Shown: positions 63,632 to 64,000 of the stretch, piece after piece
How positions within the stretch are numbered: the stretch's first letter is position 1
Layout: the number at the start of each line of letters is the position of its first letter
Assembly (NCBI RefSeq): GCF_024700885.2
Contig: NZ_CP117016.1
From: Escherichia coli
GTDB lineage: Bacteria; Pseudomonadota; Gammaproteobacteria; Enterobacterales; Enterobacteriaceae
Reading direction: 5' to 3' (one strand)
DNA: 64,000 nucleotides
Translations under genes and position numbers: made by a program
Notes under the pieces: model-generated
What the model was told of the DNA's origin: nothing
Databases searched by the model: none
What the model saw: only the letters and a program-made list of their open reading frames with translations

Positions 63632-64000
63632 CTATGATTTGTCGCCGTACTCGCTTTTTATTTGCTCTTCAGCCTGCTCCAGCCACATCTCCAGATCGTC
63701 AGTATCGAGGGCATCAATCTCCCCCGGCTGAAACCGGAACCATCTCGCCAGCAGCCCCTGCGCCTGCGTCAGCGCCCTAGTTGCTCTCACCCATCCCCGT
63801 GATGAGCTGAAATCGTTTCTGTAACTGCAGGTAATCAGCCAGATCCATATTGTCGAGATCTTCCGGGAGAAGACCAGTACTGCGGGCAATCAGCGGTTCG
63901 TCCCAGTCTGCCGGGTTTTTGCTGATTTTGCGCACCTGCTTCAGGTCTTTTACCGTCAGGCGTTTCAGTTCAACCTGCTCAATTCTGGTGCCTGCAGCAG
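63632..64000 (-). CDS. Tail assembly chaperone pair (gpE-like and frameshift-extended E'), 5' end outside window
   Basis: One frame reads …VELKRLTVKDLKQVRKISKNPADWDEPLIARSTGLLPEDLDNMDLADYLQLQKRFQLITGMGESN* (stop at 63777); an overlapping shifted frame continues to 63632 (…WLEQAEEQIKSEYGDKS*). Confidence 0.5.

Follow-up and report, generated by a model that had tools for sequence, protein, structure and literature searches.

A probable +1 programmed frameshift joining the two halves of a tail assembly chaperone gene in a BcepMu-like prophage of Escherichia coli

We analysed a 64,000-nucleotide stretch of E. coli DNA from contig NZ_CP117016.1 (assembly GCF_024700885.2), hereafter called the window. 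Near its end, two overlapping minus-strand frames lie upstream of a tape measure gene and close at TAG 63779-63777 and TAG 63634-63632, respectively. A sequence-only reading of this DNA had described a gpE-like frame running to 63777 and an overlapping shifted frame continuing to 63632, and we found both the coordinates and the description to be correct; it left unstated that the second frame stands in the +1, not the -1, relation to the first. The features of the locus are listed below.

60866-63556, minus strand: tail tape measure protein gene, 896 aa (PF10145 PhageMin_Tail, E=1.7e-20).
63777-63998, minus strand: tail assembly chaperone ORF of the P2 gpE / Mu gp41 type, with codons 18-90 and the TAG in the window.
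63809-63815, minus strand: proposed +1 cassette CGA_TTT_C (CGA 63815-63813, TTT 63812-63810, C 63809), placed by invariance and stop bounds.
63777-63809, minus strand: frame-0 tail past the proposed shift site, QLITGMGESN (10 codons) plus TAG, from the alignment.
63632-63808, minus strand: +1-frame E'-like extension, 58 codons from AGC 63808-63806 to TAG 63634-63632 (PHROG 8286, 8e-34).
63653-63751, minus strand: PF06528 (Phage P2 GpE, E' domain) segment, residues 100-132 of the predicted fusion, from the profile match.

The chaperone frame, whose first full codon in the window begins at 63998, reads ...LQLQKRFQLITGMGESN, i.e. ...EDLDNMDLADYLQLQKRFQLITGMGESN, and ends at TAG 63779-63777. Its start codon falls some 49 nt past the end of the window, near 64049, as judged from the E. 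coli EcPF7 locus, which is identical across the 601 compared bases and in which the full-length chaperone has 90 aa. The second frame is open on the minus strand from 63892 to its TAG, and the extension has the sequence SSSRGWVRATRALTQAQGLLARWFRFQPGEIDALDTDDLEMWLEQAEEQIKSEYGDKS.

The tape measure gene starts at 63556, 75 nt after the stop of the E'-like frame, and its product is the presumed client of the chaperone. In the EcPF7 and PhiKM records the orthologous gene is annotated as tape measure protein. Genes resembling gpU, gpX, gpD and gpV lie 3' of the tape measure gene. The sheath and tube genes fall beyond the window; in EcPF7 and PhiKM, whose loci are identical, they lie upstream of the chaperone. 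Escherichia phage PhiKM (genus Bcepmuvirus) shares 99% identity with the region, and we found this prophage family in 636 of 5,426 complete E. coli genomes; the EcPF7 copy is part of a complete-looking Mu-like prophage adjoining otsBA. The proposal that a chaperone pair stands upstream of the tape measure gene was supported, with a PF10109 half, an E'-like half and the 75-nt gap.

Three further observations concern the surroundings of the pair. The gap that separates the E' stop from the tape measure gene holds a GC-rich hairpin with a perfect 8-bp stem, ACAGCCGC-cagta-GCGGCTGT, at 63626-63606 on the minus strand; its arms are identical in Klebsiella phage KP12 while the loop differs, it is not followed by a T-run, and a terminator and promoter scan of 63400-64000 found none. 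At about 52100-54400, a position carried over by offset from L233 15011-16781 of the EcPF7 annotation, an invertase-like gene of the recombinase family adjoins oppositely oriented tail-fibre and fibre-assembly genes, which suggests an invertible host-range switch like the Mu G segment at the otsBA-side end of the prophage. Outside the window, in the interval between the tail tube and chaperone genes of EcPF7 (L001 3572-3854), a 94-codon ORF is flagged as 'frameshifted'; it is intact in PhiKM and KP12, and its state in EcPF7 could bear on whether that prophage makes tails.

The upstream half of the pair is recognisable by profile. The partial protein encoded in the window matched PF10109 (Phage_TAC_7) with E=9e-19 and 67.7 bits (cutoff 25), and the full-length chaperone matched it with 1.5e-23 and 83 bits; PHROG 166 ('tail protein') was matched at 3e-23. 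No match of the window's chaperone to PF23746 (Gp41_Mu) was found at E<=1, and no NCBIfam model matched either half or the fusion.

The window's own extension, taken alone, gave 18.3 bits and E 0.0016 against PF06528, below the Pfam cutoff of 23 bits. Among 27 diverse predicted fusions, from which we built the fusion profile, all 27 matched PF10109 and 15 matched PF06528 at E<0.01 (best 1.4e-8). When this profile was aligned by hhalign with P2 E+E', the probability was 96.3% (E 1.7e-9, 22% identity), and the match was colinear across the junction, covering residues 3-136 of the 142 of P2 E+E'. Both P2 E+E' and the -1 fusion of the Pasteurella phage have the same two-domain architecture and spacing as the predicted fusions. 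PGAP annotates part of the extension, from a CTG start, as 'GpE family phage tail protein'. Judged on these profiles, the extension is homologous to P2 E', and the comparison with P2 E/E' proposed beforehand proved apt.

The structural prediction pointed in the same direction. The AlphaFold model of the fusion had a mean pLDDT of 88.5 and a pTM of 0.77, with pLDDT 84-95 across and after the junction, so that the fusion models as one compact fold. In BFVD, an annotated frameshift fusion came first, the Burkholderia phage Mica 'tape measure chaperone', which aligned over 136 of the 138 columns (E 1.2e-4), and the other matches were tail assembly chaperones. The PDB gave no match by sequence and no significant Foldseek match, and the family therefore appears to be without a solved structure.

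Fused proteins also occur in the databases. Among 108 database homologues, the predicted KRF/SSS junction (the slash marks the change of frame) was absent. The 138-aa database proteins have heterogeneous junctions (after GESNQ, GKSDK, VSAG and others), none of them at KRF/SSS. More generally, the 'fusions' among public assemblies (proteins P0001-P0011, P0013 and P0017) are 129-194 aa long, mostly 138 aa, and their junctions fall at many homopolymer positions. These database 'fusions' look like assembly indel errors or mutations, not natural products, and could mislead homology-based annotation.

We then considered how the two frames are related. In the window, moving from the chaperone frame to the extension frame takes a step of +1, or equivalently of -2. 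Relatives were drawn from IMG/VR and from phage records; E' could be located in 103 distinct sequences, and the E' domain lay in the +1 frame in 101 of them, all of which keep the chaperone pair. These 101 sequences are mutually related and their counts are not independent events; the two-frame arrangement is far beyond chance. Stops close the -1 frame before it can reach the extension.

This frame arithmetic bears directly on a classical -1 shift at a slippery heptamer, as used by P2 or lambda. Homologous chaperones do shift by -1, at GGT TTT TTG in P2 and, among more distant homologues of the present family, at G_GGA_AAG in Pasteurella phage AFS-2018a, G_GGT_TTT in Achromobacter phage Mano and A_AAT_TTT in Burkholderia phage Mica, and one in-phase heptamer, A_AAC_CCG at 63918-63912 on the minus strand, does exist here. 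However, the E' domain lies in +1 while the -1 frame is closed, and A_AAC_CCG is an unconserved dead end; the arithmetic refutes a -1 shift, to which we give practically no credence.

As for that heptamer itself, it lies inside the chaperone ORF as the sole in-phase heptamer, and the overlap of the two frames contains none. We rejected it as a slip site: the -1 frame that it would open ends after about 30 codons, the sequence is A_GAC_CCG in KP12, and it is probably meaningless.

The position of the switch could be bounded by stop codons. Across the 101 sequences, stops in the +1 frame come as near as codon -4 before a conserved Phe codon (12 sequences) and none occurs from -3 to +53, while -1-frame stops are scattered on either side of the Phe. 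In several lineages, frame 0 ends 5 to 10 codons past the Phe. The shift would therefore lie within -3 to +5 codons of the Phe, provided that the whole family shares one homologous site.

Selection, analysed in 33 close relatives, also changes frame in this region. The synonymous fraction of frame-0 substitutions is about 1 up to gene nt 261 (window 63789), through ...QKRFQxxTG[L/M]G, and from nt 262 it is about 0 at most codons, with exceptions at nt 280 and 286. Constraint in the +1 frame is partial from nt 254-259, where an invariant Trp codon occupies 257-259, and complete from nt 290; the first four or five +1 codons after TTC (SSSR, SKSL, RPCL and others) are poorly conserved. Purifying selection thus passes from one frame to the other within about six codons downstream of TTT_C.

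Only three homotriplet codons fall in the permitted interval, namely TTT_C, AAA_C and GGG_A, and the latter two are not kept in the Salmonella, Ralstonia and Pseudomonas relatives. AAA_C (63818-63815) was rejected as the slip codon, its place being taken in relatives by ACC, GAC, CGT, GAG and others. A further candidate, GGG_G at gene nt 292-295, was excluded because the +1 frame is already being read there, substitutions at that point being synonymous in +1 and non-synonymous in frame 0.

TTT_C is nearly invariant. The conserved Phe codon is TTT in 101 of 101 sequences, followed by C in 100 of them and by T in the remaining one, never by a purine, in sequences with a GC content of 0.50-0.67. 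Elsewhere in the same ORFs, Phe is written TTC 124 times and TTT 115 times, and at six conserved two-fold codons nearby both synonymous forms were seen at all six; in the -1-type relatives the homologous Phe is TTC. As for the codon before it, wherever Arg precedes the Phe the triplet is CGA in 80 of 81 relatives, while a conserved Arg elsewhere is CGC 57 times, CGT 16 times, CGG twice and CGA once. In bacteria, UUU_Ynn is described as shifting by +1 with particular ease, with UUU-Y as the proposed YopN-TyeA site and UCC_UUU_CGU as the influenza PA-X cassette (PMC5009743).

We also searched the neighbourhood of the site for other stimulators. The 0-frame A-site codon after the Phe is usually CAG or CAA, neither a stop nor markedly rare. 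In the enterobacterial lineage there is no Shine-Dalgarno-like sequence 3 nt upstream of the site. A stimulatory RNA structure was not apparent from the single-sequence fold (z = 0.27), and the alignment fold of 16 diverse sequences gave 3 downstream pairs and no covariation. The efficiency of the +1 shift may be low.

One relative has an unusual variant of the site. In IMG/VR contig 3300033998_000108, the conserved Phe is embedded in GAT TTT TTT CGG, and E' is in the +1 frame; the T7 run can be read as T_TTT_TTT, a -1 heptamer, and equally as a +1 site, TTT_C. This sequence may be an evolutionary intermediate between the -1 and +1 solutions.

Selection by itself does not separate TTT_C from GGG_A at 63797-63794, and the separation assumes one homologous site. 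In this E. coli lineage the ribosome could shift by +1 at GGG_A, with tRNA-Gly moving from GGG to GGA. GGG is present in 32 of the 33 close relatives, it is one of the three homotriplets above, and the selection switch maps exactly onto it (T-G-[L/M]-G in frame 0, G-W in +1). However, GGG_A is absent from one relative with GGC (L062), from the Salmonella type (CTT AGC ATG GCT) and from the Ralstonia/Pseudomonas type (e.g. CTG GTG GCG in Komp), and relatives without it still have both the +1 arrangement and TTT_C. In another relative (L207), a frame-0 stop comes 5 codons past the Phe, at about the position equivalent to GGG_A, and the base after GGG varies between A, C and T, so that re-pairing would often be mismatched. 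We regard a shift at GGG_A as improbable.

A shift of -2, as in Mu, would lead into the same frame as +1. In Mu gp41, itself a marginal PF10109 match (24.7 bits), a -2 shift has been verified at CGG GGG CGA, and a CGA is present here too. The permitted interval, however, offers no -2 re-pairing, as TTT would have to move to GAT, and GGG to CGG or CTG. There is no run of five G here as in Mu, and the invariant pyrimidine after TTT is accounted for by +1 re-pairing but not by -2. We consider a -2 shift very improbable. The sequence-only reading had proposed a programmed frameshift and a slippery heptamer near 63780-63890. A shift joining the two frames remains our reading, and a conserved candidate slip site does lie in that interval, at 63815-63809; what did not hold is its kind, which is neither a P2- or lambda-type -1 heptamer nor a Mu-type -2 G-run, and appears instead to be a +1 tetranucleotide, TTT_C.

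The E' domain could also be a separate small gene with its own start codon, reached without any frameshift. Stand-alone E' genes are annotated in RefSeq (CTG start) and in NC_005882 (gp42, ATG start), PHROG 8286 was built from stand-alone E' calls, and some lineages have an ATG a few codons ahead of the E' domain. Against this, 18 of the 101 sequences lack any ATG, GTG or TTG between the site and the E' domain, and in 85 of the 101 none has an SD-like motif; the start-like codons stand at varying positions, and the window has no ATG. The +1 conservation, with its invariant Trp, and the stop-free zone begin at TTT_C, ahead of every candidate start. The only annotation of the homologous E' in P2 is as a fusion to E by -1 frameshift, and the compact fold of our fusion model, matching an annotated fusion, also argues against a stand-alone E'. 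Independent initiation of E' is unlikely on this sequence evidence.

The TAG that ends the 90-aa form deserves separate treatment. At this codon most close relatives have CAG or GAA, and their frame 0 reaches 102-111 aa. RefSeq/PGAP marks the TAG allele (EcPF7 locus, L001 3952-4287) as a pseudogene with an 'internal stop'. On these grounds, the chaperone could be a decaying pseudogene inactivated by a nonsense mutation at 63779-63777, and the small ORF flagged 'frameshifted' near it in EcPF7 would fit such decay. However, the PF10109 domain ends near residue 82, before the TAG, which lies 10 codons downstream of the proposed shift site, and neither the domain nor the fusion is affected by it. 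The frame-0 tail after the conserved Phe is without purifying selection at most codons and varies naturally from 5 to 43 codons across the family. The 90-aa form (cluster P0012) is present on 914 contigs, and the other tail genes within the window are all intact. Decay is therefore, in our judgement, highly unlikely; the TAG is probably harmless and, as far as sequence can tell, the gene pair is probably intact. These data agree with the earlier view of a functional, not a decayed, tail module, but do not prove it.

RefSeq treats this locus in one of three ways: it is split into two genes, the E' ORF is omitted, or the chaperone is called a pseudogene. Where a genome has CAG at this codon, the E' ORF carries no annotation at all. 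We argue that the 'internal stop' label is an artefact because the TAG sits in an unselected frame-0 tail of variable length; both this label and the missing E' look like consequences of not modelling a +1 frameshift. The fusion was likewise not annotated in any of the eight phage-collection records inspected. The window's tail-module chaperone is likely intact despite its database label.

Taken together, we propose, at a probability of roughly 75%, that this BcepMu-like prophage makes two proteins from one start of its tail assembly chaperone gene by a +1 programmed frameshift at UUU_C. The majority of ribosomes would stay in frame 0 up to TAG 63779-63777 and release the 90-aa gpE-like chaperone. 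A minority would shift by +1 while tRNA-Phe is on UUU (63812-63810), the tRNA re-pairing to UUC (63811-63809); in an alternative form of this step, Phe-tRNA would bind out of frame at UUC. As UUU is followed by a pyrimidine, tRNA-Phe (anticodon GAA) could re-pair perfectly one base forward, and we infer that the switch is ribosomal +1 slippage of the P-site tRNA-Phe. The long product would be a 138-aa fusion, ...LQLQKRF/SSSRGW...LLARWFRFQPGEID..., with an E'-like C-terminal domain and the junction ...LQLQKRF/SSSRGWVRATRALTQAQGLLARWFRFQPGEID....

Known bacterial +1 sites rely on a stop codon, a hungry codon or a Shine-Dalgarno element. CGA is decoded through I:A wobble by tRNA-Arg(ICG). The CGA before the Phe, the only candidate stimulator here, could act from the E site or the P site, where, on the boldest reading, it would take the place of such an element.

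The roles of the two products can be suggested by analogy with lambda G/GT (PMC5009743) and P2 E/E+E'. The N-terminal domain shared by both forms would bind or coat the tape measure protein, while the rarer extension would recruit the tail tube protein, and neither product would end up in the virion. The proportion of the two products would then depend on how often ribosomes shift.

Frameshifting in tail chaperones is well documented, and +1 and -2 cases occur occasionally (PMC5009743; PMC10274946). The GeneTack and PRFect papers do not mention this chaperone family, and an earlier listing of the +1 site elsewhere is possible. The value of the locus would lie in a natural, deeply conserved +1 site that has no stop codon, SD element or RNA structure and in which CGA is strikingly fixed, which makes it well suited to studying how bacterial +1 slippage at UUU_Y is stimulated. 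For annotation, a simple rule follows: a PF10109 ORF, TTT_Y at the conserved Phe, and E' in the +1 frame.

P2 offers a close parallel. As in gpE/gpE+E' of P2, PF10109 is followed by PF06528 from near residue 100, and the pair lies directly upstream of the tape measure gene, then U, (X) and D; EcPF7 and PhiKM have one small ORF between the tail tube gene and the E-like gene. The P2 shift, too, falls on a Phe codon where the PF10109 domain ends. The difference lies in direction, since the P2 record annotates a -1 shift on GGT TTT TTG, whereas the present extension occupies the +1 frame, with CGA_TTT_C as the candidate site.

Mu gp41 is, like the present protein, a transposable-phage tail chaperone with its extension in the +1/-2 frame and a CGA in the site. 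However, Mu slips by -2 on the G5 run of CGG GGG CGA, a run that is lacking here, and gp41 matches PF23746 Gp41_Mu (9e-35), unlike the window's protein; we saw no resemblance between the Mu extension and E'. Lambda gpG/gpGT uses a -1 shift at G_GGA_AAG and has no detected sequence similarity to the chaperone of this prophage, and it serves here as an analogy for the proposed roles.

The UUU_Y sites known elsewhere, namely the E. coli argI error site, Yersinia YopN-TyeA and influenza A PA-X, share UUU plus a pyrimidine and need no stop codon (PMC5009743). Those cases are in unrelated genes, whereas here the gene is a phage tail chaperone and CGA usually precedes the site. BcepMu and its close relatives have TCC TTT CGC at the site, which is nearly the PA-X cassette UCC_UUU_CGU.

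In BcepMu itself, gp41 is the PF10109 chaperone; the gp42 ORF resembles E' and lies in the +1 frame, and the homologous Phe again has TTT_C. In the BcepMu record (NC_005882, L230 5603-6364), gp42 is instead taken for the counterpart of lambda G, with gp43 as the product of slippage from it. In the paper on phage KS10, no frameshift site is reported for the gp41-like gene (PMC2628397). We found the BcepMu gp43 to be a GC-rich ORF in the frame of gp41. From the sequence, it appears that gp41 pairs with gp42 through a +1 shift at TCC_TTT_C and that the record pairs the wrong ORFs.

Across these systems, homologous chaperones reach two products by different routes, -1 in P2, Pasteurella, Mano and Mica, -2 in Mu and, on our reading, +1 here. 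A bolder proposal, which we put forward tentatively and with more doubt than confidence, is that CGA_UUU_C is a dedicated and maintained bacterial +1 cassette stimulated by its CGA, and that the PF10109+PF06528 family has switched repeatedly among -1, -2 and +1 shifts at approximately the same position.
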